Positions 29,017 to 40,000 of a stretch of DNA of 64,000 nt are shown here, piece by piece. The translations under genes and the position numbers were made by a program. The DNA is from Bdellovibrionota bacterium. Lineage in GTDB: Bacteria > Bdellovibrionota_C > UBA2361 > OMIW01. The notes under the pieces were generated by a model. The model worked only from the letters and a program-made list of their open reading frames with translations. It made no database searches and was not told where the DNA came from. The stretch spans positions 64,320 to 128,319 of the forward strand of contig JBIIHQ010000003.1 of NCBI GenBank assembly GCA_044235645.1. Reading direction: 5' to 3'. Each line of letters opens with the position of its first letter. Position 1 is the first letter of the stretch.

Positions 29017-31788
29017 CTACCGGACGGTAAACGTCGTTGAGTACGAGCTGAACAGAGTCCGGGCTCCCGAGGGGGATATCGCCTGATATCGGACCCGATA
29101 TCTACCCTTTCGGAGTCCTTCAACGACTACCTTTGTTGTTCTCGAGCGCACGACGCTCACCGATGTCGACGAAGTCAGCGTCTCGACGGACAACCGGTAT
29201 TGCGTCGGATTCTGTGGGAGCCCAGCCGCCGACACCGTCACTTCGAATTTCCGGGTTGTCAGCCGTTTCACGGACGGTCTCGCTGGAGTACTCGCGTTGA
29301 ACGGCACCGGCGTTGCTGTCGGAGTCGGAGTCGGTGGGGCTGGCGTGGGCGTAGCACATCCAACCAACAACTTTCCAGATGAGTCAAAGTCGGGCTTACC
29401 ACAGCCGCACGCCCCCGGTTCTACCTTGAGGCTATCCCCAGGGCATAGATCGTCGCAGTCAGGCTTTCCATCTCCATCCGTATCTACATCGGACTGAAGA
29501 CAACCACAAAGGCCGGGGTTGATCTTTGCCGGATCGGTGGGACAACCGTCTGTGCAATCGAACTCCCTATCAAAATCAGAGTCAACATCCTCAACCCCAC
29601 AGCCACAGATACCCTTTTGCTGTTTTTGTGGATCGTTTGGGCAATTATCTTCGCAATTGGCGACGCCATCGCTGTCGCCATCAACATCTTCCACCTTTTT
29701 AAAGTCCTTCCAGCACATGTCAAAGCAGTCGGACGTACCATCTCCATCCTGGTCGCTTGCGAGATCCTCAGGGAGACAGCTTGGGGCCTGGAAGATATCA
29801 GCGACTGAGTTCGTGTCGGGTGCTGGGGTGCCGAGTGGCGAAACATTACCCACGTCAGGGGCAGTTGAGCGGTACGCAACCGAACCGACCCGAATCCGAA
29901 CTTTCTCAGGAGTGGGAACGACACCTGGAGTGTTGACAGCCAAGGGGTTGGGAGTTGCGGTTGCAGAGCGCGGGATGACAGCCGCAAACGCATTACTGCT
30001 ATCCCCTAATCCTCCCGCACCCGACCCAGACGATGCCAGCACGGCTCGACACTCATCAACTCGCCCAAGCCGATCCTTTGTTACATTAGCTGCATACACC
30101 TGATTAGTACCACCTACAGCACCCCAGTTGGTTGAATTGGATTGAAAAGCAATCAATTCCCCCGAACCACTGACGCTTGGATTTCCGGAGTCACCATTAC
30201 CTTCCTGCCCGGCTGAACCGGAACAACGAATTGTCTGAAAGAATCGACGATCATAGACGAAGACATCCTTTCTCCCGTTCGAATCACCAAGTGTGATATT
30301 CGACGCGCTCGAATCATAGATCACAAATCGACCGTCTGCCGAGATGCGGACGTTCTGGCTAGAGGCGTTCGGGGCTACAATCTTAGTAAAGTTGTTGCTG
30401 ACTCTCTCGAGATTTCCGACATCCTCGGATATTTTATCTCTCTCAAAGACAAATACATCGGAGCTACCGTTAAAGTCCAGGGAACGGAACGGTGTCAGTG
30501 ATTCAAAAGCAATAAACCGGCCATCCTCGCTGATGGATCCATTAATTGAATCTTGTGTACTTACCACATCACATTGCAGAGGGCGGGGTTGATGATATTT
30601 ACAGTCGAAAGATGCCACCTTGGTTGAAGGAGTTTCTCCCCCGTCCCTCACATATATATCCCGCACCTTGTTACTGTCTAACCATTGATTAAAATCGAAA
30701 TTCGGAGATTGTCGCGGATTAGTTTGCTGCTCAAATGCAAAGTCTGATGGTCGCGGACCGGGGAAAAGGTAATCGTCATCGTTATCCTGGATTCCATCCT
30801 CTCCGAGAATCGGCTTTAATAACCCGACCTCTTTCTGAAAGCCATCAGCTAACTCTACCAGAACAGAGGATTCGCCACTCTCCGTCCTCCTAAATCCGGC
30901 CCCCGTAAAACCGTCTGTATCATAAACTACGAAGCGTCCATCTCCTGATAAATACGGACGTCTACTTTCACTCTGCCCTCGCTGACGGTCGGGATTAGGA
31001 GCCGCAACACCCAAACTACTATACCCAAGGGCACCCACAATTTCATCAAGCTTGGTATTGGCGACTCGGAGCGTTTCAGTCAGAAGAGCCGGTTTTCCAT
31101 TCGCATCGTACTGGGCGACTCCGTTCACACCACTTGTAGCGTCGTAATAAGACTGCCGGACGGTCGGTATCTCTGACATCGATGCTAATTTAGTCTGATT
31201 GGCAAGTCTATCTCGAACCAGTATGTGACGACCAGGGAAAAAGATGCCAACATGAAACCGCTGATTGTAAATATCCTTCCCGATAGAAGGCTTGTCGGGA
31301 CCAACCAAGGAGTTAAAACTTTCTTTAAAGATAGCCTTGCCCTTCTTCCCTGGACTGACCGGATCTGCACCATCGCGCAGATCCGCCACAAATGCCACAA
31401 ACCGCCCATCATTACTCACAGTTGGCTCGTAACAGTCGACAGGTGAAGGATCACCTGTCATCGTCACGCTCACTAATTCAATCGCTCCCGCCTGCCGATC
31501 ATACAAGTAAACCTGCTTACGACCATTCAGCGCTATTGAGGCCTTTTCCTGCGTCTGCGCCACCAGATTCGTCGCAGCCGACTCGAATACGACGAACCGG
31601 CCGTTCTTACTCATTTGGGGATTGTTTATATCGGCGTTCGCCAGTCCACCGCTTCCAGTTCCATAAGCAAAGCTAATTCGGGCCGTATCATTTGGGGCAA
31701 ATGGCTGTGCAGAGACTGCCTCCATCATTACGACCCCTGACGCAACGAGAAATGCTCCAGACAGGAGCGCTGAAAAGGTGCGCTTCAT
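29017..31788 (-). CDS. Secreted or surface protein with N-terminal PD40 (TolB-like beta-propeller) repeats and thrombospondin type-3 Ca-binding repeats with CGCG motifs.
   Basis: Signal peptide. At least 5 GRF[VI]x[FY]xS PD40-like repeats. Repeated D.D.DG..D..D and CP.D...K...G[IAL]CGC[GL] units. A PT-rich linker (TPTPAPPTPTPTATP) and a ~90-aa C-terminal beta domain. Confidence 0.6.
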   Translation of the reverse strand: MKRTFSALLSGAFLVASGVVMMEAVSAQPFAPNDTARISFAYGTGSGGLANADINNPQMSKNGRFVVFESAATNLVAQTQEKASIALNGRKQVYLYDRQAGAIELVSVTMTGDPSPVDCYEPTVSNDGRFVAFVADLRDGADPVSPGKKGKAIFKESFNSLVGPDKPSIGKDIYNQRFHVGIFFPGRHILVRDRLANQTKLASMSEIPTVRQSYYDATSGVNGVAQYDANGKPALLTETLRVANTKLDEIVGALGYSSLGVAAPNPDRQRGQSESRRPYLSGDGRFVVYDTDGFTGAGFRRTESGESSVLVELADGFQKEVGLLKPILGEDGIQDNDDDYLFPGPRPSDFAFEQQTNPRQSPNFDFNQWLDSNKVRDIYVRDGGETPSTKVASFDCKYHQPRPLQCDVVSTQDSINGSISEDGRFIAFESLTPFRSLDFNGSSDVFVFERDKISEDVGNLERVSNNFTKIVAPNASSQNVRISADGRFVIYDSSASNITLGDSNGRKDVFVYDRRFFQTIRCSGSAGQEGNGDSGNPSVSGSGELIAFQSNSTNWGAVGGTNQVYAANVTKDRLGRVDECRAVLASSGSGAGGLGDSSNAFAAVIPRSATATPNPLAVNTPGVVPTPEKVRIRVGSVAYRSTAPDVGNVSPLGTPAPDTNSVADIFQAPSCLPEDLASDQDGDGTSDCFDMCWKDFKKVEDVDGDSDGVANCEDNCPNDPQKQQKGICGCGVEDVDSDFDREFDCTDGCPTDPAKINPGLCGCLQSDVDTDGDGKPDCDDLCPGDSLKVEPGACGCGKPDFDSSGKLLVGCATPTPAPPTPTPTATPVPFNASTPARPSVKRLTTRKFEVTVSAAGLPQNPTQYRLSVETLTSSTSVSVVRSRTTKVVVEGLRKGRYRVRYQAISPSGARTLFSSYSTTFTVR

Positions 31789-32032
31789 AGACTCTGAGAC
31801 CCTTTAGTGAACACACGTGTGAGCTATACCACTTACCGGATTCGCGACGTCGAATAGAATGACCTCTCTTGGTAAATCTCGATACAGAAATTATGACATT
31901 CTCACGTGAGCGAATCTTAACCTCTTTCAACCCCCCGCAACGACGGACGACATTCTCTCGATGGACCTATCCAAATGAGTGTACAGCTATTCGATGCCGT
32001 CGCAAGACCCTGAGATTCCTCTCGGCTATTGA

Positions 32033-33154
32033 TTAGGCCTCCGTTGCCGCACAAATAATCTCGGGATCATCCTCCTCCACTAGCACCCGGACCGCGGGAT
32101 GATGGGGGACAACAGCCCCCTCCGCACGAAACAACCATCGAAGGAGATCTCTAAAAAAGCTAAAAAGAGGCATTTGGGATGCTATTCTATTTCTAACCTC
32201 CTCTCGGGTCGCCTTGAAACTCGCGTGGCTCTCCTGTGTCAACTTTTCCCGCTCTCTCAGATAGTTACGGAGCGGTTGAATCTGAACTTCGAAGAGACGC
32301 CCCCCCCACCCAACAACAAGCTTTATTGCCTTCCAACCTGAGTTTTTTGCCCGAGATTCAGATAGATAATCCTTCGTCTCAATAATCGTGATCTTTCGCG
32401 TCTCAGGGCTGGGGACTACCCCGATGCTCGCAAGAATGCGGTCGCTCCACTCTAACTTCTCAAGCGCAGCCAACAATCGATAAGCACTCATTTCGTCGGC
32501 AACCACCATCTTTAGTCCGAATACATCTTTGACGTATCGACTCAAATGAGAAAGCTGCTTATCTCGGGATACGAGAGAGTCAAGGTGGAATATTTCATCA
32601 ACGACCTTATTCCAAATCTCCTCTTCTGCCTTCACCCGCGTCATCAACTTGTGAATATTGAACGTGTTGTATCCCCGCGGTTGATATTCCACCACGTTCG
32701 ATATCAGGGCTGGTACACCCCACCCCCCTCCGTCGAAATAGCGGAGTTTACTGAGCTGTCTCGTCCCCAGATCGAGGTCGGTCGTCGCATATAACTCCTC
32801 GAGGGTGAGGGTCTGAGAGAGGGTAAATCGCTCTCTCGACTGGGGAACCTCGCCGATGACAACGCTACTGATCTCCACAAGCGCTTGAATATCCTCCCCA
32901 TCGCCAAGCAACGAGGAAAAAAGGAGCGCCATTCGGTGAAGCGCCTCTTCGCCCCGGCGGATCATCGCCCCAAAACTTTTCTGTATACTATCAACGGTTG
33001 ATCGTTGGAAGGTAAGGGTGACAACACGGCCATCCTCCCGTAACGACTCGCGGGCAATCTGCAAAGACGTAACCAATTCATTAAGGTGTCGGTCTTGGGT
33101 GACCATCCATAGCGGACTGTGACCTAAATGAGGTGTCAGGGGGTGTTCTTCCAC
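32033..33154 (-). CDS. RelA/SpoT-synthetase-fold nucleotidyltransferase domain protein, with a diverged C-terminal synthetase-like domain and an unknown N-terminal ~190 aa.
   Basis: Motif series DVFGLKMVV...AYRLLAAL, then TKDYLSESRAKNSGWKAIKLVV, then GRLFEVQIQ...SHASFK. These correspond to the RelA/SpoT blocks D.aG.R.I / DYI..PK.NGYQSLH / EVQIRT...AHW.YK, with substitutions in the last two. Confidence 0.45.
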   Translation of the reverse strand: MEEHPLTPHLGHSPLWMVTQDRHLNELVTSLQIARESLREDGRVVTLTFQRSTVDSIQKSFGAMIRRGEEALHRMALLFSSLLGDGEDIQALVEISSVVIGEVPQSRERFTLSQTLTLEELYATTDLDLGTRQLSKLRYFDGGGWGVPALISNVVEYQPRGYNTFNIHKLMTRVKAEEEIWNKVVDEIFHLDSLVSRDKQLSHLSRYVKDVFGLKMVVADEMSAYRLLAALEKLEWSDRILASIGVVPSPETRKITIIETKDYLSESRAKNSGWKAIKLVVGWGGRLFEVQIQPLRNYLREREKLTQESHASFKATREEVRNRIASQMPLFSFFRDLLRWLFRAEGAVVPHHPAVRVLVEEDDPEIICAATEA

Positions 33155-33276
33155 AATGCCTGTTTATCGATTGGCTACAAATGGTTACCCAAAATTGCCC
33201 ACCTTGCTCCTCTTGCCCAGAGGCTTAAGCAGTACGAGGCGCAAGATGGGCCATAGATGTGAGAACACTGCTCCAG

Positions 33277-33798
33277 TCATCCTCGCCTCGTCATTACCCC
33301 TACCCCGTCATCGAATACGAGACTCCCCCCGAGGTAGCCGACATATAAAAGGATGGCGCCGAGACAGCTAAGCGAAATTGCATACCCGATCGCAGAGATA
33401 AAATCGCCCCGTCTTTTTGCGACCAATCGTGCTCCGGCCACTATCGGCAGAATAAACACCGCCCACCGGCCCCACGAATGATGATCGGCAATCCTGCCTG
33501 AAACTGCCCCATCATCGGGTGGGTACAAGAAACCATCCGCAACATACCCCGATAAAAAGGTTACCAGGATGGCGGTACACAATCCCCAAAAAGCCCATCG
33601 AGCCTCCTCTGAAGGCCTCCACGTTCGCCATAACGAAACTATATCAAGCCCCCCGAGGAGCAGCCAAAACGCGAGCGAACAACCACTGATGGCGGGGTGA
33701 ACCCGAGAGATTACAGATATCACACAACTCGCTCGTAAAAGACAAATGAAAGCCCCTCGCCCTTGGTCAGGGATTGACCTAGCACCCTGAGAGTTCAC
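33277..33798 (-). CDS. Small polytopic membrane protein (hypothetical). Its start overlaps the stop of the upstream phosphatase gene by 4 nt.
   Basis: 4-5 predicted TM helices and a Trp/Gly-rich periplasmic loop. The ATGA-type overlap with 33795..34925 suggests translational coupling. Confidence 0.4.
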   Translation of the reverse strand: MNSQGARSIPDQGRGAFICLLRASCVISVISRVHPAISGCSLAFWLLLGGLDIVSLWRTWRPSEEARWAFWGLCTAILVTFLSGYVADGFLYPPDDGAVSGRIADHHSWGRWAVFILPIVAGARLVAKRRGDFISAIGYAISLSCLGAILLYVGYLGGSLVFDDGVGVMTRRG

Positions 33799-34925
33799 TT
33801 TTTCTGGAGCGCGAGAACCGTCACATCATCATTGAGACGCTTTCCATCCAGGAATCCAATAACGTCCTCCTCCAGAATCGCTCCTATCGAGCGACCGTCC
33901 TCACCCGCCTCAACTATTGCCTGTCCAATCCGATCAACTCCGTATCTCTCTCCATCCCTGTTTGCCGTTTCGGTCAACCCATCAGAGGTGAGGATCAGCA
34001 CATCCCCCGACCCCAAGGTCAGAGTATAGGGAGCGTACATCACATCCTCATCAACCCCCACCGGGAGGCCCCGCGCACCCACCTCTCGACATTCCCCCGA
34101 GTGTCGTTTCACCAAGACCGACGGCGGAATCCCTCCGTGCGCCAGCTGAACCTCACTCGTCTTCGGATCGTAGCTCGCGATCACAATCGCGATGTACCGC
34201 CCCTCTGGAAGCTGGGGCGTGAGAATTCTGTTGACATCACTCATGAGATCGACCGCCTGCTCTGCCTGACTCACCGAGAGCGCCAATTTGACCATGCTGC
34301 ACAAAAGTGCTGCGGCTATCCCATGGCCTGTCACATCGATTACTACGAGCTGAAGGCTGCCGTCGGGGAGTATACGACAAAAATAAGCGTCACCGGCAAC
34401 CTGTTCCATCGGACGGTACCATACCGTCACCTTTACGTCATCATTCGACGGAAGAGTGGAGGGCAACAGCGCGTGCTGAATCGATTTTGCCTCGGCAAGC
34501 TCACGCGCGTACCGGTTATTGAGGTCCTTTAACATTGCATTACGCTCTCGAAGCGTTGCTTCGTGATCGTCCGCTCCCTTCAACTTATTAACCCGCAGAA
34601 GTACCGCCGCCTTACTCGCTACCGCCCCGGGATTGGTGGAAACAGGTACCACCTCCTCGTGGTTAAGTTGGACATCTCCGGGATCCCCGTCAACGAGGCG
34701 AATGAGAGGAACCTCCCTTGTTGAGGGAAACGCTCGCAAAAAATAACGAACATCGAGGGCATGGGGATAGGTGGCCTCATTCAGGATGACTAAATCAGTT
34801 TCAGTAGATTGAAAAATCTGCAAGGGCGCGAGGCCCGTATCTGGGCAAATAACGCTGTATCCGAGAAAGGTAAGAAGGTTGTGAATCTTCCCCCCCGACT
34901 CATCGAGCAGCATTATGGTATCCAT
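33795..34925 (-). CDS. Response-regulator receiver domain fused to a PP2C/SpoIIE-family Ser phosphatase (RsbU-like).
   Basis: REC-like N-terminus (IMLLDES...DLVILNE). PP2C/SpoIIE core (WYRPMEQVAGDAYFC, VVIDVTGHGIAAALL, LILTSDGLTE). Confidence 0.7.
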   Translation of the reverse strand: MDTIMLLDESGGKIHNLLTFLGYSVICPDTGLAPLQIFQSTETDLVILNEATYPHALDVRYFLRAFPSTREVPLIRLVDGDPGDVQLNHEEVVPVSTNPGAVASKAAVLLRVNKLKGADDHEATLRERNAMLKDLNNRYARELAEAKSIQHALLPSTLPSNDDVKVTVWYRPMEQVAGDAYFCRILPDGSLQLVVIDVTGHGIAAALLCSMVKLALSVSQAEQAVDLMSDVNRILTPQLPEGRYIAIVIASYDPKTSEVQLAHGGIPPSVLVKRHSGECREVGARGLPVGVDEDVMYAPYTLTLGSGDVLILTSDGLTETANRDGERYGVDRIGQAIVEAGEDGRSIGAILEEDVIGFLDGKRLNDDVTVLALQKK

Positions 34926-35089
34926 CCTTGAACCCTCTACGACGGGGGATCAGCGCCTCATCGACAGCCTCGCTGATCCCTCTCCGACCTCCTGGCCGCC
35001 TTCGAGCCCCCCCACTAGTTGCTCGCTTAATGTGCCGCCATGGGAGGAAGATCGACAAAGGGAGGCTGCCTCTTGAGAGATTTTCTTAC

Positions 35090-35707
35090 TTATTTTCCAA
35101 TAGGGACGCGTCCCGGTTCGCCCTCGATCACTACGCCCTCTACCTTTGGCAAGGACTGCCGGTCATTTGCAGAAAGAGAGGGAAGACGAAGTCGCCACTC
35201 GGGACCCACCTCATTCAGAACCCCCATCTCAACGAATAAGGTATCCTCAGGCCCACCCCACTCGCCCGCTGCAAGCCTCGCCCGAAAGTAGGGAAGGGGC
35301 GCGACCGCTGGCCCCCGCAATACTTCCCCGGTAATACGGTAGCGTGAGCCGGAAAAAGGGGAGGTTAAGAAGCGCTCTCCTCTCTCCTCAGCTAAGACGA
35401 GCGGAGACAGGTCAGAGGTGCATTCGGTGCTCATCACCGAGAGCCCTCGTTCGTCAGAGCGAATTAAGATTCTGAAATCTGCCAGGAAAGTTTCCCGGTC
35501 AGCAAGAAGAGAAGCAACTGACCCAACTCTCATCACCCCAGCCGGTCGGTGGAGATGGCGACCCTTGCACCCACTGGGACTAAAGGCGAGGGTGATGATA
35601 AACAGACCCGACCACAAACGGTTACCCTTCCCTCGGAAGGTGCGCCCATCCCTCGCAGGGGCACTGGCGGAGTTGGACCCCGCACCTGCCCCCTCTACTG
35701 CACCCAC
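35090..35707 (-). CDS. Hypothetical lipoprotein.
   Basis: Possible lipobox LAFSPSGC after a hydrophobic segment. No recognisable domain. It lies where yajC-secDF would normally follow tgt. Confidence 0.3.
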   Translation of the reverse strand: MGAVEGAGAGSNSASAPARDGRTFRGKGNRLWSGLFIITLAFSPSGCKGRHLHRPAGVMRVGSVASLLADRETFLADFRILIRSDERGLSVMSTECTSDLSPLVLAEERGERFLTSPFSGSRYRITGEVLRGPAVAPLPYFRARLAAGEWGGPEDTLFVEMGVLNEVGPEWRLRLPSLSANDRQSLPKVEGVVIEGEPGRVPIGK

Positions 35708-36024
35708 GGAAGCTGCTCTCGTAAACTCTCAATGAGAGCCGGGACGGAGGTGTCCGGAGGAGCGATAACAACACCACCCTGAACCTGGTGCGCCAGCCGT
35801 TTTAAAACTCGTTCGGGCCCTCGCTGAGAGTCTCTCACCCGCAACCGTCGAAGTCTGTCGCCCCCCATCAATTCGAGGTAATCCTCGAGCTCGGAACGCT
35901 CCGTCGCGAGAATAATAAGGCGGTGTCCATTTATCGTAACCGCCGCGGGGTGACTACCTTTGAAGGGGGCAAATAACTGGCTCATATCCTCAAGGTAACC
36001 CTCAAGCCGTCTCTTTTCAACCAC
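35695..36024 (-). CDS. Hypothetical protein (109 aa).
   Basis: ORF overlapping the downstream gene by 13 nt, on the same strand as tgt. No motif recognised. Confidence 0.3.
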   Translation of the reverse strand: MVEKRRLEGYLEDMSQLFAPFKGSHPAAVTINGHRLIILATERSELEDYLELMGGDRLRRLRVRDSQRGPERVLKRLAHQVQGGVVIAPPDTSVPALIESLREQLPWVQ

Positions 36025-36046
36025 CTTATTCGAGCCTTCGCAAAAA

Positions 36047-37192
36047 CTACCTTACCTCTTTTCCATTCCGCCACCGATACCGTACCTCTCGATGGAGATC
36101 TGAAAAGGTACCCACTTCGATGGAACGCCGAATCGCCCGCATAAGGGTAAGATAATGAGTCACATTGTGAAGCGATAATAGCTGTGGCCCAAGCATCTCT
36201 TCCACCTTGAAAAGATGGTGAATATACGCTCGTGAGTATCGACGACATGCGAGGCATCGACAGCTCTCATCCAGAGGTATTTCACTGCGCGCCCAGCACG
36301 CATTCCGAATATTGAGATACGGGTGCTCACCTGATAGAAAAGCCCTCCCGAAGCGACCCGCCCTGGTCGGCATCACGCAATCAAAGAGGTCTACCCCCTG
36401 AGATACCGCTTCCACTATATCCCCGGGCGTTCCAACTCCCATTAAATAACGAACTTTGTCCGCCGGAAGTTGCTGCGGATGATATGACAATACGTCGTAC
36501 ATCACCTCCTGCGGTTCCCCAACACTCAATCCACCGATCGCATACCCATCAAACCCAATTTGAGTCAGCGCATCGATTGACTCGGTTCGCAACTCCCGGT
36601 ACTTACCCCCCTGAGTAATACCAAAGAGAGCAGTTTCAGGCCGGCCTCGGGCATCAGCGCACCGCTTTTCCCATCGAACGGTCCGCTGTAAAGATCGCGC
36701 AACCCCGTCATAATCGAGCTCTGCCGCAGGACATTCATCAAAGGCCATCGCAATATCGACCCCGAGCTCCTCCTGAATCCCAACCGAGCGTTCAGGCGTC
36801 AGCATAATCTCCGCGCCATCAAGATGCGACCGAAACCGCACCCCCTCCTCAGAGATCGCCCGAATACTTTGAAGGCTGAACACCTGATAGCCCCCGCTGT
36901 CGCTCAGGATCGGCCCCTCCCAGCTGCAAAAGCGATGGATGCCCCCAAGAGCTCCAATGAGCGATGAGCCGGGCCGAAGATGGAGATGATAGGTGTTTAC
37001 CAGCGTTACTTCTGTTCCTGCCTCCCGAAGCCGCTCATGATCAATACCTTTTACCGTCGCCTTGGTTCCAACCGGCATGAAAGCCGGGGTTTGGAAACTC
37101 CCATGAATATGGGTGCGATACGCACCCCGACGAGCTCGACCATCCTGACACCAGAGACTAAAGGGGGCGCGACCTGTTGAGACTTCTACCAC
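36047..37192 (-). CDS. tgt: Queuine tRNA-ribosyltransferase.
   Basis: DGRARRG...FMPVGT, Zn-site CxCxxC...H (CRCLACRRYSRAYIHHL), and overall Tgt similarity. Confidence 0.9.
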   Translation of the reverse strand: MVEVSTGRAPFSLWCQDGRARRGAYRTHIHGSFQTPAFMPVGTKATVKGIDHERLREAGTEVTLVNTYHLHLRPGSSLIGALGGIHRFCSWEGPILSDSGGYQVFSLQSIRAISEEGVRFRSHLDGAEIMLTPERSVGIQEELGVDIAMAFDECPAAELDYDGVARSLQRTVRWEKRCADARGRPETALFGITQGGKYRELRTESIDALTQIGFDGYAIGGLSVGEPQEVMYDVLSYHPQQLPADKVRYLMGVGTPGDIVEAVSQGVDLFDCVMPTRAGRFGRAFLSGEHPYLNIRNACWARSEIPLDESCRCLACRRYSRAYIHHLFKVEEMLGPQLLSLHNVTHYLTLMRAIRRSIEVGTFSDLHREVRYRWRNGKEVR

Positions 37193-37201
37193 ACGCGCCT
37201 C

Positions 37202-37651
37202 CTAGTCCTGACGATGACCTTGAGCCGCGACATCGGCGAGATACTGCTTGAGCTTAACCAAGCTTTCGTCGCTCAACAAATGCTCCGTTTTGCAGGCATC
37301 TATCTCTGCCTGCTCAGTGCCAACTCCGATCACTTCGTGGAGTAACTGAAAAAGCACTGCCCTTCGGTCCAGAACTCCCGCAACGAGTTTTTCCCCTTCA
37401 CTCGTCATCACCAGGAATTTATTCGGGTCCATCTCGACAAGACCGCGCCCCTTGAGCCCCTTTATGTTCGCCGACGCACTCCCGGTCGTGATATCGAGAT
37501 GGCGTGCGACATCACTAACCCGCACATATCCCTGCGTATCCCGTATCTCCTTTATAGCCATCAGGTGATGGGCGGCACTATGGGTAAGCTTATTTTCTTC
37601 AAACAGCTTCCAAATCTCCATCGGTTTGCCCCCCGTCTCTCCGTTTGCCAT
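37202..37651 (-). CDS. DtxR/MntR-family metal-dependent transcriptional repressor.
   Basis: ~142 aa. HTH (GYVRVSDVARHLDITTGSASANIKGL) and a metal-binding/dimerisation helix region similar to MntR. The start is possibly the internal MEIWKL Met. Confidence 0.7.
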   Translation of the reverse strand: MANGETGGKPMEIWKLFEENKLTHSAAHHLMAIKEIRDTQGYVRVSDVARHLDITTGSASANIKGLKGRGLVEMDPNKFLVMTSEGEKLVAGVLDRRAVLFQLLHEVIGVGTEQAEIDACKTEHLLSDESLVKLKQYLADVAAQGHRQD

Positions 37652-37933: not shown

Positions 37934-38926
37934 ATGAACCCCATCAGGATGTATTTTCGGAGAGCGATCATGTCTTTCAACGACGGCGAAGTAAAAAGGG
38001 GGTCCATTCTCCTCGACACGGGCACCAATGAAGTTGAATTTCTGGAGATTGCGGTCGGCTCTGAGCGGTTTGGGGTCAATGTGGCCAAGGTTTCACAGCT
38101 GCTGGTCTGGGACCACTCCAAACTGACCCAATTACCCTCGTCGGACAATGTGTTCCTCGGCTCTTATCCCTTTCGGGGATCGAACTGCGCTGTTTTCGAC
38201 CTTAGTCAAATCCTTGGCTTTGAGCTGAGACAGGACATTAATCCCCTCCTCCTCGTCATGGAGTTCAACTCGCGCATCAATGGATTCCTCGTTGATAAAG
38301 TGTTCAACATCGAACGTGTTTCGTGGAATAGATTTCTCCCAATATCCGAGACCACTTTTGATGTCACTTCTCATTCTCTGACGGGAACCGTGATGATTGA
38401 TAAGAGGGTCATCATGATTCTCGACATTGAAGCACTCATGGCGGAGCTAGATCCCGAGCAACAGATAAGCACTTACATTAAGTACGTTAACAATGAATCT
38501 CCCGTTGCTCAGTACAAGAGAGAAGAGGTTCAGATTTTGTACTGCGAGGACTCGGGCGTGATTCGGAAAACCACGGTAAAAACTCTCGAGCAGGCCGGCT
38601 TCCGCAACATCGAGCAATTCGTCACGGGTGCAGAGCTTCTCCGACACCTTCAGGCGAACACTCCCCAAGCAACAACCCTCATACTGAGTGATATCGAGAT
38701 GCCCGAGCTCGACGGTCTCGCCCTCTGTAAGGCGGTAAAATCAAATCCAAAATTTCAGAGGATTCCCTTTGTCTTTTTCTCCTCCCTCATTAATGATCAG
38801 ATGCGCGCCAAATGCGATATCGTTAAAGCAGATGCTGCATTCTGTAAGCCGGAAATTCACATGATCGTCGATTGCATCGACTCGTTGCTCACTCCACTGG
38901 CTGAGGGGGAGGGATCGACTGACTAA
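37934..38926 (+). CDS. cheV: CheV-like chemotaxis protein (CheW-like domain + C-terminal receiver domain).
   Basis: CheW-like N-terminal domain (EVEFLEIAVGSERFGVNVAKVSQLL). C-terminal REC with ILYCEDS...ILSDIEMPELDG...K. Confidence 0.7.
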   Translation: MNPIRMYFRRAIMSFNDGEVKRGSILLDTGTNEVEFLEIAVGSERFGVNVAKVSQLLVWDHSKLTQLPSSDNVFLGSYPFRGSNCAVFDLSQILGFELRQDINPLLLVMEFNSRINGFLVDKVFNIERVSWNRFLPISETTFDVTSHSLTGTVMIDKRVIMILDIEALMAELDPEQQISTYIKYVNNESPVAQYKREEVQILYCEDSGVIRKTTVKTLEQAGFRNIEQFVTGAELLRHLQANTPQATTLILSDIEMPELDGLALCKAVKSNPKFQRIPFVFFSSLINDQMRAKCDIVKADAAFCKPEIHMIVDCIDSLLTPLAEGEGSTD

Positions 38927-38968: not shown

Positions 38969-40000
38969 CTACAGAACTACCATTCCATCACCGTAGCTCA
39001 AAAATCGGAACCCGTCAGCCAGAGCTGACGCATAGACAGCTCCGAGTAATTGGCGTCCCAGTAGCGACTCAACCAAGAGCAGGTGAGACGTTCCCGGTTG
39101 ATGAAAATTGGTAACAAGATTGGTCGCCATTCGCCATTCGAACCCTGGGGTGATAAAGAGGGTGGTTTCGCCTCGCAACCTCTCAGGTTCACGGGCAACA
39201 CTCTCGAGCGCTCGAGCAACAGTCGTTCCCACGGCGACGACTCTCCCACCCGCCCGTTTCGTCTCCTTGATCGCATCTCGGGTTGGTATCGGCATCTCAA
39301 ACCATTCGCACCCCGGGAGCTGAGGCTCGTTCGCACCGGGGCGATATACGGGGAGAAAGCTCGCCGTCCCAACGTGAAGGGTAAGAAAGGCCCACCGAAT
39401 GCCCCGCCTCTCGCACCGAGCGAAAAGCCGATCCGTGAAATGAAGACTTGCCGTGGGAGCCGCAACCGAGCCTACCCCCGCCGCAAAATCGTCTCTCGCG
39501 AAGATCGTCTGATAGTCGGCACGATCTTGAAGGTCACCCTTGCCACCACGAATATAGGGAGGAATCGGCATCGATCCAAAATGCGCAAGCGCGTTCGTAA
39601 CGGAGCTTCCATCAATCGTGTAGAATGAGCAGCGAATGTCGTCGTCCTTTGTCACCTCTATCCGCCCTCGGAGAAGCTCGCCACATTCAATTTCCCCACC
39701 CCGGCGAAGCTGTTTCATCGGCCGCCCCAACACGCGCCACATTCCCTCAGTTTCCTCACGAACCAACAACACCTCGACCGGACGGCCCGAAAGTGTTCCG
39801 AATAATCGTGCGGGGATCACCCGCGTATCATTTAGTACAAGCAGGTCCCCCGGATCCAAAAATTCCGGAAGGTACGCAAACTGAGATATCGAAATCTCAC
39901 CAGAGGCCCGATTGACAACGAGCATCTTCGCATCATCTGCTGGAGAGCAGGGACGCTGCGCAATGCGGTCAGAGGGAAGATGGTACGAAAACGGCTCCAT
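38969..40000 (-). CDS. queA: S-adenosylmethionine:tRNA ribosyltransferase-isomerase.
   Basis: Full-length QueA similarity (YHLPSDRIAQRP...PIPPYIRG...TTVARALE...NFHQP.S.LLLVES). Confidence 0.85.
   Translation of the reverse strand: MEPFSYHLPSDRIAQRPCSPADDAKMLVVNRASGEISISQFAYLPEFLDPGDLLVLNDTRVIPARLFGTLSGRPVEVLLVREETEGMWRVLGRPMKQLRRGGEIECGELLRGRIEVTKDDDIRCSFYTIDGSSVTNALAHFGSMPIPPYIRGGKGDLQDRADYQTIFARDDFAAGVGSVAAPTASLHFTDRLFARCERRGIRWAFLTLHVGTASFLPVYRPGANEPQLPGCEWFEMPIPTRDAIKETKRAGGRVVAVGTTVARALESVAREPERLRGETTLFITPGFEWRMATNLVTNFHQPGTSHLLLVESLLGRQLLGAVYASALADGFRFLSYGDGMVVL

Follow-up and report, generated by a model that had tools for sequence, protein, structure and literature searches.

Within a 64,000-nucleotide stretch of Bdellovibrionota DNA (hereafter the window), we found that the 373-aa product of an ORF on the minus strand (32033..33154) is a diverged member of the RSH synthetase fold, as shown by both profile and fold searches, and belongs to a stand-alone family of putative RelA/SpoT-fold pyrophosphokinases. 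Our preferred explanation, to which we give a probability of roughly 60% as a whole, is that this RSH-like protein is a vertically inherited, stand-alone and likely active enzyme with a non-canonical acceptor or regulation, that it is not a toxin, and that its clustering with a PP2C phosphatase gene is confined to one lineage. A sequence-only reading of the window had described three co-directional genes here, encoding a phosphatase, a small membrane protein and the RSH-like protein, and all three minus-strand ORFs were found where it had placed them.

An RSH fold with an altered active site

The RelA/SpoT motif series proposed for the C-terminal half of the protein is present, with changes in its conserved blocks exactly as reported (G213-L-K215, E289-V-Q-I-Q293-P and S309-H-A-S-F-K314). 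Profile PF04607 matched residues 173-296 at E=4.6e-5 with 24.1 bits, against a gathering cut-off of 27 bits; it also matched 29 of 30 relatives at E<0.01 (best 6.7e-8) and occurs as a precomputed match in many clusters of the family. The AF2 model (pLDDT 85.4, pTM 0.84), searched against the PDB with Foldseek, retrieved RSH enzymes for all of its top 33 matches (RelP, RelQ, Rel, SpoT, RelA or CapRel; probability 0.96-1.00), at modest TM-scores (TMt <=0.46), so that profile and structure both place the protein inside the RelA/SpoT fold. Neither the single sequence nor the family profile found a significant match among PDB sequences (best 3l9d, E=0.15), NCBIfam yielded no meaningful match, and PADLOC none of note. 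We regard the family as widespread, conserved and uncharacterised; it may coincide with an SAS subfamily that already has a name, bdRel for instance.

Two parts of the protein are specific to the family. The N-terminal alpha/beta domain (residues 1-148; 32711..33154, minus strand), defined from alignments and an isolated-domain model (pLDDT 81, pTM 0.60), carries invariant S13-P-L-W16, G68-E69, H73, R109, D126, G130 and R132. It has no Pfam, NCBIfam or PDB sequence match, and a PDB fold search with the isolated domain found no match (best E=0.93, probability 0.10), in keeping with the earlier description of a domain of no known type; the 190 aa then given for its length must be reduced to about 148 aa because the strands feeding the R173-x-K175 motif start at about residue 149. 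There begins the synthetase-like catalytic domain (residues ~149-345; 32120..32710, minus strand), delimited by profile alignment to E. coli RelA, SpoT and 3l9d. Inside it, between the phosphate-binding helix and the D210 strand, lies the second family-specific part, an insertion of about 14 residues (32528..32590, minus strand) recognised from an R-to-D spacing of 37 residues versus 23 in E. coli RelA. D198 and K199 of the insertion are invariant and H203 is near-invariant, and the segment is modelled with low confidence (pLDDT blocks 64 and 53). Distant longer relatives (467-613 aa) have no extra Pfam domain, and fusions therefore give no functional clue for the family.

For the active site, conservation was counted in 101 family sequences from several phyla aligned with E. 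coli RelA, E. coli SpoT and 3l9d, and residue roles were taken from PMC5794853 and PMC11782079. The catalytic domain keeps R173, K175, K183, D210, G213, E289, Q291, H310 and K314 and carries replacements at E179, D186, K215, W274, K278 and Q293, most residues of both sets being present in 101/101 sequences. The Asp and Glu of the synthetase strands that bind Mg2+ (PMC5794853) correspond to D210 and E289 in the D-x-x-G-x-R and E-x-Q-x-R strands, which align with RelA, SpoT and 3l9d and are 101/101. In the ATP-triphosphate motif R-x-K-x3-S-x3-K-x2-R/K, R173, K175 and K183 are invariant, the Ser is E179 in 87 of the 101 (not fully invariant), and the last basic residue is D186 in every sequence; these two changes turn a basic phosphate-binding helix acidic. 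The Arg pair that stacks the donor adenine in SaRelP (R78 and R112; PMC5794853) is not intact, its first member being R173 and its second an invariant Lys, K215. The canonical G-loop n-G-Y-x-S-x-H reads S-G-W274-x-A-x-K278 (W274 and K278 both 101/101), and the Arg of the canonical E-I-Q-I-R-T is replaced in E-I/V-Q-I-Q293-P (Q293 101/101). The invariant substitutions of the family are R to K215, R to Q293, G-loop Y to W274, H to K278 and R/K to D186.

Could this be a catalytically dead pseudo-enzyme whose RSH fold serves only to hold a nucleotide or another molecule as partner? The loss of one of the adenine-stacking Arg residues, of the EIQIRT Arg and of two residues on the basic helix would fit, but the Mg2+ carboxylates, the R-x-K, K183, G213, Q291 and H310 show full or almost full conservation over the 101 sequences, which span several phyla; such a pattern is typical of an active enzyme, and we consider inactivity very unlikely. 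The protein is a chromosomal, vertically inherited, stand-alone member of the RSH fold and most likely an active, Mg2+-dependent nucleotide (pyro)phosphotransferase. It retains the ligands for the ATP phosphates (R173, K175, K183) and Mg2+ (D210, E289) together with G213, Q291 and the ribose-contacting H310; it would bind ATP-Mg and hand the beta,gamma-pyrophosphate on to an acceptor at its 3'-OH, with the acceptor base stacked on the invariant W274. Because six positions are replaced, an invariant insertion is present and a domain of ~148 aa is added at the N-terminus, the acceptor, the regulation or both probably depart from the pattern of canonical (p)ppGpp synthetases; as acceptors, the candidates are an adenine nucleotide and an RNA/tRNA 3' end. 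Loss of one adenine-stacking Arg and of two basic-helix residues could also weaken ATP binding or mean another donor or chemistry.

The same replacements bear on the view that the enzyme is a conventional small alarmone synthetase, producing (p)ppGpp from ATP and GDP/GTP, and that its N-terminal domain is regulatory and its motif changes are conservative. Its nearest structural neighbours, RelP and RelQ, are (p)ppGpp synthetases, JGI labels some family members 'ppGpp synthetase/RelA/SpoT-type nucleotidyltransferase', and the enzyme keeps its Mg2+ ligands and most of those for ATP; in addition, a purine can stack on Trp as it does on Tyr, and Lys is a partial substitute for Arg. We nonetheless judge this unlikely, since the family departs from characterised RSH enzymes at six conserved positions, five of these replacements being invariant from phylum to phylum, two of the changes make the phosphate-binding helix acidic, an invariant insertion lies beside the active site, and no NCBIfam model matches. 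At the other extreme, and as a tentative proposal that we would sooner doubt than adopt, the family could form an RSH class in five phyla with a site rewired by the Trp G-loop, the acidic helix, the insertion and the new N-terminal domain. Such a site would send pyrophosphate to an acceptor other than GDP/GTP, for example an RNA/tRNA 3' end or a nucleotide giving a new messenger; the role would be physiological and non-toxic, and one Bdellovibrionota clade would have wired the enzyme to a membrane-linked pseudo-receiver PP2C module.

Distribution, inheritance and neighbours of the family

Clustered at about 50% identity, the RSH-like family forms more than 698 protein clusters, and it is found in 243 reference species from at least five phyla (Bdellovibrionota, Myxococcota, Chloroflexota, Acidobacteriota and Eremiobacterota). 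Its tree follows the phyla, and these phylum-congruent clades, together with the ~50% identity that persists across phyla, point to vertical inheritance. No relatives were present in 50,697 phage records, 72,556 plasmids or 2.9 million viral contigs (IMG/VR), and ~160 loci contained no family-wide conserved neighbour or TA-like partner. Neighbours vary, with synteny at the level of clades, such as a tRNA cluster with the suf operon; in places the gene has a housekeeping context (tRNA cluster, suf operon, tgt). Adjacency to tRNA genes at 21 of 83 loci was set aside as a single event because one clade accounts for all of them. Ser/Thr kinase genes show no enrichment around the RSH-like gene (0.98 vs 0.71 per 100 kb).

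These distributions weigh on the suggestion in the sequence-only reading that the protein might be a toxin. In the fullest form of this view, a toxSAS-type (pp)pApp synthetase or tRNA CCA pyrophosphokinase would be restrained at the protein level by its neighbours in a TA or anti-phage module. An RSH fold with altered motifs would fit, CapRel and FaRel2 are among the structural matches, though with weaker scores, and some clades have tRNA-related neighbours. The gene, however, has no conserved bicistronic partner and no TA-like neighbour in ~160 loci, is vertically inherited in phylum-congruent clades at ~50% identity across phyla, lies in housekeeping surroundings (tRNA cluster, suf operon, tgt), is absent from the phage, plasmid and IMG/VR viral collections, and has no PADLOC match. 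Because of its vertical inheritance, the lack of a conserved neighbour and this absence from phage, plasmid and viral sets, the toxSAS assignment is unsupported and to us extremely improbable: on our reading the RSH-like gene is not a toxin-antitoxin or defence gene.

A PP2C gene cluster in a single lineage

Focusing on the local arrangement, the phosphatase gene (33795..34925, minus strand) encodes a 376-aa protein with a SpoIIE/RsbU-type PP2C Ser/Thr phosphatase domain (residues 187-374; 33804..34367, minus strand; PF07228, E=3.4e-38, 132 bits) in and around which the metal-binding D179, D197, D315, D366 and D367 are invariant (alignment A3). The phosphatase half of the receiver-phosphatase fusion described earlier is thereby established, whereas a functional receiver is not. 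The receiver-like segment (residues 1-112; 34590..34925, minus strand), delimited by alignment with REC-PP2C proteins, gave no Response_reg (PF00072) match with the whole protein or with residues 1-129 at E<=10, and a precomputed one is likewise absent from orthologues P0271-P0280. Although D8-E9 is retained, the phospho-acceptor column is N49 in all window-lineage orthologues versus D in P0282, P0297, P0300 and P0280 (the first three being the comparison REC-PP2C proteins in A3), and the Thr/Ser column (V) and Lys column (V or L) are lost across the orthologue group. On these grounds of missing profile match, Asp to Asn49 replacement and loss of Thr/Ser and Lys, the aligned sequences identify the domain as a degenerate pseudo-receiver.

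The second gene encodes a small polytopic membrane protein, as had been noted, probably of the DUF2231 type: PF09990 matched it at 25.3-25.5 bits versus a cut-off of 26.4, over profile positions 4-137 of 139, the identical 148-aa public protein P0343 (100%) has a precomputed PF09990.15 match, and about 4 hydrophobic segments are visible by inspection. The 4-nt start-stop overlap with the phosphatase gene, in contrast, proved to be an artefact of ORF extension. When start codons were compared with L004, L001 and L005, the GTG behind the overlap was absent in L004, a 94-96% identical relative with a TAA stop at that point; since, in addition, P0343 is 148 aa long and homologues align only from residue 33 of the extended ORF onward, we place the gene at 33277..33723 (minus strand, 148 aa), which leaves a spacer of ~71 nt after the PP2C gene. 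A literature search on DUF2231 found nothing.

Upstream of the PP2C gene lie orf205 (35090..35707, minus strand; start codon uncertain) and orf109 (35695..36024, minus strand). The former encodes a Rieske-like putative lipoprotein, assigned by homology and a weak NCBIfam PetC match (E=9e-4) and devoid of the Cys/His cluster ligands, and is 41% identical (E=2e-34) to a Rieske-domain gene next to that of P0280, a distant orthologue of the PP2C; the latter encodes a small uncharacterised protein 32% identical (E=1e-25) to a 96-aa gene beside P0280 and is also found in L001 and L004. The older conserved partners of the PP2C are thus orf109 and orf205, not the RSH-like gene. An Rfam scan of 31500-36300 detected no riboswitch or other RNA, and promoter and terminator scans of the cluster gave no signal above shuffled expectation.

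The triad of PP2C, DUF2231 and RSH-like genes is present in L001, L004, L005 and the P0006/P0279 contig, where the flanks differ and the DUF2231/RSH-like junction overlaps; in the window, a 122-nt gap precedes the RSH-like gene. It is limited to the closest RSH-like relatives (at least 56% identity), which form a single monophyletic Bdellovibrionota-like clade, and the PP2C orthologue group is equally narrow, its clusters and those of the RSH-like orthologues having contigs of matching length. None of ~155 other loci (~77 from reference genomes and 80 from metagenomes) has it, nor do P0007, P0008 and P0009, and the metagenome matches listed include no further triad-clade locus, so that the pairing on which the sequence-only reading had built was seen in one clade of closest relatives only, which comes near to the absence of co-occurrence named there as a refutation. 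Its remark that the arrangement is undescribed does agree with our literature search and with PADLOC, which returned nothing comparable. Triad-specific adaptation of the enzyme is essentially absent at the sequence level, I174V being the sole substitution present in every member of the clade.

In the window lineage alone, the RSH-like gene became the last of a compact cluster (orf109, Rieske-like lipoprotein, PP2C, DUF2231, RSH-like). This five-gene cluster arose once and is probably an operon, because it has outlasted some 58% sequence divergence and the replacement of all its flanking genes; as judged from gene order, it may place the enzyme under a membrane-linked Ser/Thr-phosphatase signal. 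Since the triad represents one evolutionary event, conservation by descent is not separable from functional coupling. A regulated nucleotide-messenger module may exist in this clade. A dedicated form of such a module would run from an envelope signal (DUF2231, Rieske-like lipoprotein) through the PP2C, which, by removing phosphate from the RSH-like enzyme or from a partner, would turn the enzyme on or off, to a nucleotide product as output. The compact co-directional order is kept in two divergent sublineages with different flanks, the PP2C catalytic residues are intact, and in one Acidobacteriota lineage alone an FHA-PP2C, a second SpoIIE-type protein of other architecture, is encoded ~100 nt downstream of the RSH-like gene. 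Yet the association is missing from ~155 other loci and amounts to one origin event plus a second, possibly coincidental case (SpoIIE-type PP2C genes near the RSH-like gene in 2 lineages versus 0 further out, not significant); the cluster contains no kinase, the surroundings of the gene show no excess of Ser/Thr kinases, the enzyme lacks triad-specific residue changes, and the older partners of the PP2C are orf109 and orf205. We therefore see a dedicated module as a plausible idea with the odds against it, and retain a lineage-restricted cluster around an otherwise stand-alone enzyme as our reading.

Comparison with known systems

RSH-fold enzymes have repeatedly shown unexpected chemistry, including (pp)pApp synthesis, tRNA 3'-pyrophosphorylation and exported synthetases. 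The RSH-like family is large, holds ~50% identity over at least five phyla, is non-mobile and is 'hypothetical' in public databases, and it keeps the metal site yet has invariant changes where donor base and acceptor are recognised. Identifying what the enzyme makes could bring to light a nucleotide or RNA modification that is new and has a housekeeping role in bacteria that prey, glide or live in soil, with the probable PP2C operon of one lineage as a possible handle on regulation; if the enzyme simply makes (p)ppGpp, it is just another SAS subfamily.

The best structural matches are RelP and RelQ (SAS1/SAS2; PDB 6ewz, 6fgx and 5dec; Foldseek E=3.6e-5 to 2.4e-4, probability 1.00), which share the SYNTH fold, the R-x-K...K phosphate motif, the D-x-x-G strand, E-x-Q and the ribose His at about 15-18% identity. 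Relative to them, the RSH-like protein has Lys for the second adenine-stacking Arg, Trp for the G-loop Tyr, Gln for the EIQIRT Arg, and Glu and Asp for the alpha-phosphate Ser and Arg, along with the 14-residue insertion, the extra N-terminal domain of ~148 aa and different C-terminal helices. Compared with the SYNTH domain of the long RSH enzymes (Rel, RelA, SpoT), its C-terminal motif series is in register with E. coli RelA and the spacing from the E-x-Q strand to H-x-x-x-K is similar, whereas the HD hydrolase, TGS and ACT domains are absent and the same substitutions apply.

The toxSAS enzymes (CapRel, FaRel2, PhRel2, FaRel, Tas1/Apk1) have the RSH fold in common with the RSH-like protein and provide a precedent for a non-guanosine acceptor, namely the tRNA CCA end or adenine nucleotides (PMC11782079); a reduced basic patch, as in tRNA-modifying FaRel2, is a further likeness. 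Their structural scores are weaker (CapRel E=2.6e-3, FaRel2 E=0.04-0.07), and whereas toxSAS genes form conserved two- or three-gene TA-like operons with a cognate antitoxin (PMC7229694), the RSH-like gene has no antitoxin-like partner, is absent from mobile elements and is vertically inherited. The phosphatase, for its part, resembles RsbU/SpoIIE-type PP2C proteins with an N-terminal sensor (REC-PP2C, e.g. RssB-like) in its full PP2C domain and in the helical linker after the receiver-like domain. It differs from them in that the receiver lacks the phospho-acceptor Asp, Thr and Lys, and in that its partners are, in place of a nearby STAS or anti-sigma kinase gene, the Rieske-like lipoprotein and the 109-aa protein.

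Fold and active site of the RSH-like protein

The 373-aa RSH-like protein encoded on the minus strand of the window (32033..33154) scored just under the 27-bit cut-off of the RelA_SpoT profile (PF04607; 24.1 bits, E=4.6e-5), and 29 of 30 relatives matched this family and essentially no other. When an AlphaFold2 model built from 101 sequences (pLDDT 85.4, pTM 0.84) was compared with the PDB using Foldseek, the first 33 matches were all RSH synthetase domains, led by RelP and RelQ (E=3.6e-5) and followed by SpoT, Rel, RelA and CapRel, with FaRel2 weaker. The RelA/SpoT fold proposed by the sequence-only reading therefore stands, as neither profile nor structure search places the protein outside it. 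The N-terminal domain that this reading described as unknown indeed resembles nothing in Pfam, NCBIfam or the PDB sequences, but covers ~148 residues rather than 190. This conserved domain is of the alpha/beta type, and S-P-L-W, G-E, H73, R109 and D-x-x-L-G-x-R never vary in it; modelled alone (pLDDT 81), it gave no structural match (best Foldseek E=0.93).

For the active site, we used alignments of the family profile with RelA and SpoT of E. coli and with PDB 3l9d, counted conservation over the 101 sequences, and took canonical residue roles from SaRelP (PMC5794853) and FaRel2 (PMC11782079). The contacts to phosphate and adenine (R173, K175), a further phosphate contact (K183), the Mg2+ ligands (D210, E289), the Gln of E-x-Q (Q291) and the ribose His (H310) are invariant, while the strand Gly (G213) is present in 100 of 101 sequences and the Lys of H-x-x-x-K (K314) in 92, the other nine having Arg. 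Replacements are just as fixed: K215 for the second adenine-stacking Arg (G-x-R), Q293 for the Arg of E-I-Q-I-R-T, W274 for the G-loop Tyr that stacks on the acceptor base, K278 for the His after it and D186 for the last basic residue of the phosphate-binding helix are all invariant, and E179 takes the place of the alpha-phosphate Ser in 87 sequences. The family also has an insertion of its own, 14 residues long (window 32528-32590, minus strand; residues ~189-209), which separates this helix from the strand bearing D210. In it, D198 and K199 never vary and H203 hardly does. Model confidence is low here (pLDDT 53-64); lying next to the active site, the segment may act as a mobile loop for substrate or regulation.

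The protein thus has an RSH fold with an intact Mg2+/ATP core. Together with fixed changes at base- and phosphate-reading positions, the intact metal site argues for a working enzyme that would have other substrates, or another regulation, than the canonical (p)ppGpp synthetases. A plain (p)ppGpp-producing small alarmone synthetase, in keeping with RelP and RelQ as best structural matches, is unlikely in view of these substitutions. A pseudo-enzyme is highly improbable: several canonical residues are gone, but with its metal site intact the protein does not look like a decayed one.

Spread and inheritance of the family

A word-indexed search retrieved more than 698 clusters, nearly all of 350-390 aa and ~50% identical to the window protein; in a 50%-representative library, 155 matches passed E<=1e-3, 38 of them also E<=1e-30. 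Relatives are encoded in 243 reference species genomes of Bdellovibrionota, Myxococcota, Chloroflexota, Acidobacteriota, Eremiobacterota and occasional other phyla, and are publicly named 'hypothetical protein' or bear an automatic COG label. Because phyla come out as clades in a neighbour-joining tree (identity 64-83% within groups, about 50-56% between), the tree indicates a family probably inherited mainly vertically. No relatives were found in 50,697 phage records, 72,556 plasmids and 2.9 million viral contigs, no defence-system model matched the RSH-like protein, and clustering of ~160 neighbourhoods revealed no family-wide partner, only clade-level synteny. From the altered motifs, a toxSAS toxin had been considered; vertical descent and the lack of mobile-element relatives, of a constant partner and of a defence-model match contradict this. 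All this is the reverse of what a toxin-antitoxin gene of the toxSAS type or a defence gene would show, and we regard such a role as extremely improbable.

In the main Bdellovibrionota clade (21 loci, L007-L062; e.g. L012 9190-11035), a tRNA-Thr/Tyr/Trp cluster precedes the RSH-like gene in the same direction, at a distance of 86-405 nt (967 nt in L038), and sufB/sufC/sufD come after the gene; since these loci form one synteny block, they were counted as one event. Some Myxococcaceae (L047 7941-9926; L039, L041) carry a fusion of tRNA-guanine transglycosylase (TGT) and an MnmC-like Methyltransf_30 domain directly upstream. In the window, tgt (36047-37192, PF01702) lies ~2.9 kb upstream of the RSH-like gene; such proximity may reflect a weak connection with tRNA modification, or long-standing synteny. 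The neighbours of tgt up to 40000 are likewise housekeeping or signalling genes: a metal-dependent repressor of the DtxR/MntR type (37202-37651), a plus-strand gene for a CheV-like CheW-receiver protein (37934-38926) and, judging by synteny with a PF02547 gene in L001, probably queA (38969-40000). On the other side, a 923-aa minus-strand protein (29017-31788) begins with a signal-like segment, has one PD40 repeat match and ends in a series of Asp/Cys-rich repeats (D-x-D-x-D-G-type); its gene is kept downstream of the RSH-like gene in the relatives L001, L004 and L005.

The PP2C gene and its possible coupling to the RSH-like gene

All three minus-strand ORFs of the triad were found where the sequence-only reading had placed them. 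The middle one does encode a small membrane protein, probably of the DUF2231 type (25.3-25.5 bits, under the 26.4-bit cut-off), but its reported extent and 4-nt overlap with the PP2C gene (33795..34925) are artefacts. The overlapping GTG is absent in L004, a 94-96% identical relative whose PP2C stop codon is TAA; homologues align only from residue 33 of the long ORF, and public gene calls give an identical (100%) protein of 148 aa bearing a PF09990 match, so the gene is 33277-33723, leaving a spacer of ~71 nt. No promoter, terminator or Rfam element separating or explaining the triad genes was found. GC skew is negative in nearly all 2-kb bins of the window (1-64000), with cumulative skew dropping steadily. 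This agrees with near-all minus-strand genes in the studied stretch, so co-directionality carries little weight here.

The 376-aa phosphatase, described as REC-PP2C, kept only half of that name. Its SpoIIE/PP2C domain is clear (PF07228, E=3.4e-38, residues 187-374) with metal-binding Asp residues invariant in the alignment, but the N-terminal ~112 residues have no Pfam receiver match, even at E<=10. In an alignment with true REC-PP2C proteins (P0282, P0297, P0300) they fill the receiver columns, with the acceptor Asp changed to Asn49, Val at the Thr/Ser position and the Lys lost in every window-lineage orthologue; by this alignment the region is a pseudo-receiver, dead beside an intact phosphatase. 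The orthologues of this PP2C span the same narrow range as the triad clade. Their closest outgroup, P0280 (34% identity), retains the acceptor Asp and conserved Lys and adjoins neither a DUF2231 nor an RSH-like gene; its neighbours are a gene with a Rieske domain and one of 96 aa, homologous to window orf205 (41%, E=2e-34) and orf109 (32%, E=1e-25), respectively. By these neighbours, the PP2C gene belongs first of all to an orf109/Rieske-like/PP2C module that was joined once to the housekeeping RSH-like gene. Both orf109 and the Rieske-like putative lipoprotein orf205 are kept beside this PP2C type (window 35090-36024, minus strand; L086 2320-3097), divergently transcribed in the 34%-identical relative (L086). 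The cluster ligands of orf205 are degenerate (C-T-S... and S-P-F-S-G-S replacing C-x-H and C-x-x-H), and the three genes look like a putative uncharacterised signalling module.

The triad is present in the window, L001, L004 and L005 (RSH-like identity 73-94%, full synteny) and on a 242-kb contig (P0006, P0279; RSH-like 56%, PP2C 61% identical to the window) with entirely different flanks and a DUF2231 gene overlapping the RSH-like gene. By the equal lengths of their contigs, the remaining RSH-like clusters P0001, P0002, P0004 and P0005 pair with PP2C clusters P0271, P0276, P0275 and P0273. Triad sequences form one monophyletic clade in a neighbour-joining tree, and the triad is missing from P0007, P0008 and P0009, from ~77 other reference-genome loci and from the 80 metagenome loci listed. 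Co-occurrence with the PP2C gene thus holds in that clade and fails in all other loci compared; the compact arrangement is limited to it, and its RSH-like proteins show no specific adaptation, I174V being the sole substitution common to all. An Acidobacteriota lineage (L083 11150-12397; L118 7139-8317) provides a second adjacency, an FHA and SpoIIE-type PP2C gene ~100 nt downstream, with an architecture unlike the window PP2C; two lineages with a PP2C near the gene versus none further out is not significant and compatible with chance. Close to distant family members at several loci (L152, L155, L156, L167; L084 6445-7464), genes for Hanks-type Ser/Thr kinases occur at distances of up to ~2 kb without enrichment (0.98 per 100 kb vs 0.71 per 100 kb further away).

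A genuinely coupled PP2C-to-enzyme signalling module, for which the clade's persistent pairing speaks and the limits of that pairing do not, is therefore a tentative proposition, compatible with the reading we prefer. In that reading, to which we assign a probability of roughly 0.6 for enzyme and co-expression together, the RSH-like protein would be a catalytically active, ATP-dependent (pyro)phosphotransferase that departs from the canonical enzymes in its acceptor or its regulation and has a physiological role; in the window lineage it would be co-expressed with a membrane-associated PP2C module that possibly controls it.

Comparison with known systems

Our literature search found no paper describing the RSH-like family, DUF2231 or an RSH/PP2C pairing; the family may already bear a name in the Atkinson-lab subfamily tables. 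What is of interest here is the enzyme family rather than the triad. From toxSAS the RSH-like protein differs in each property that sequence analysis could check, and from characterised (p)ppGpp synthetases in missing the Arg pair, the G-loop Tyr-His and the EIQIRT Arg. By fold, profile and metal site it belongs to the RSH superfamily, and the systems it would most resemble in working are the small alarmone synthetases RelP and RelQ.
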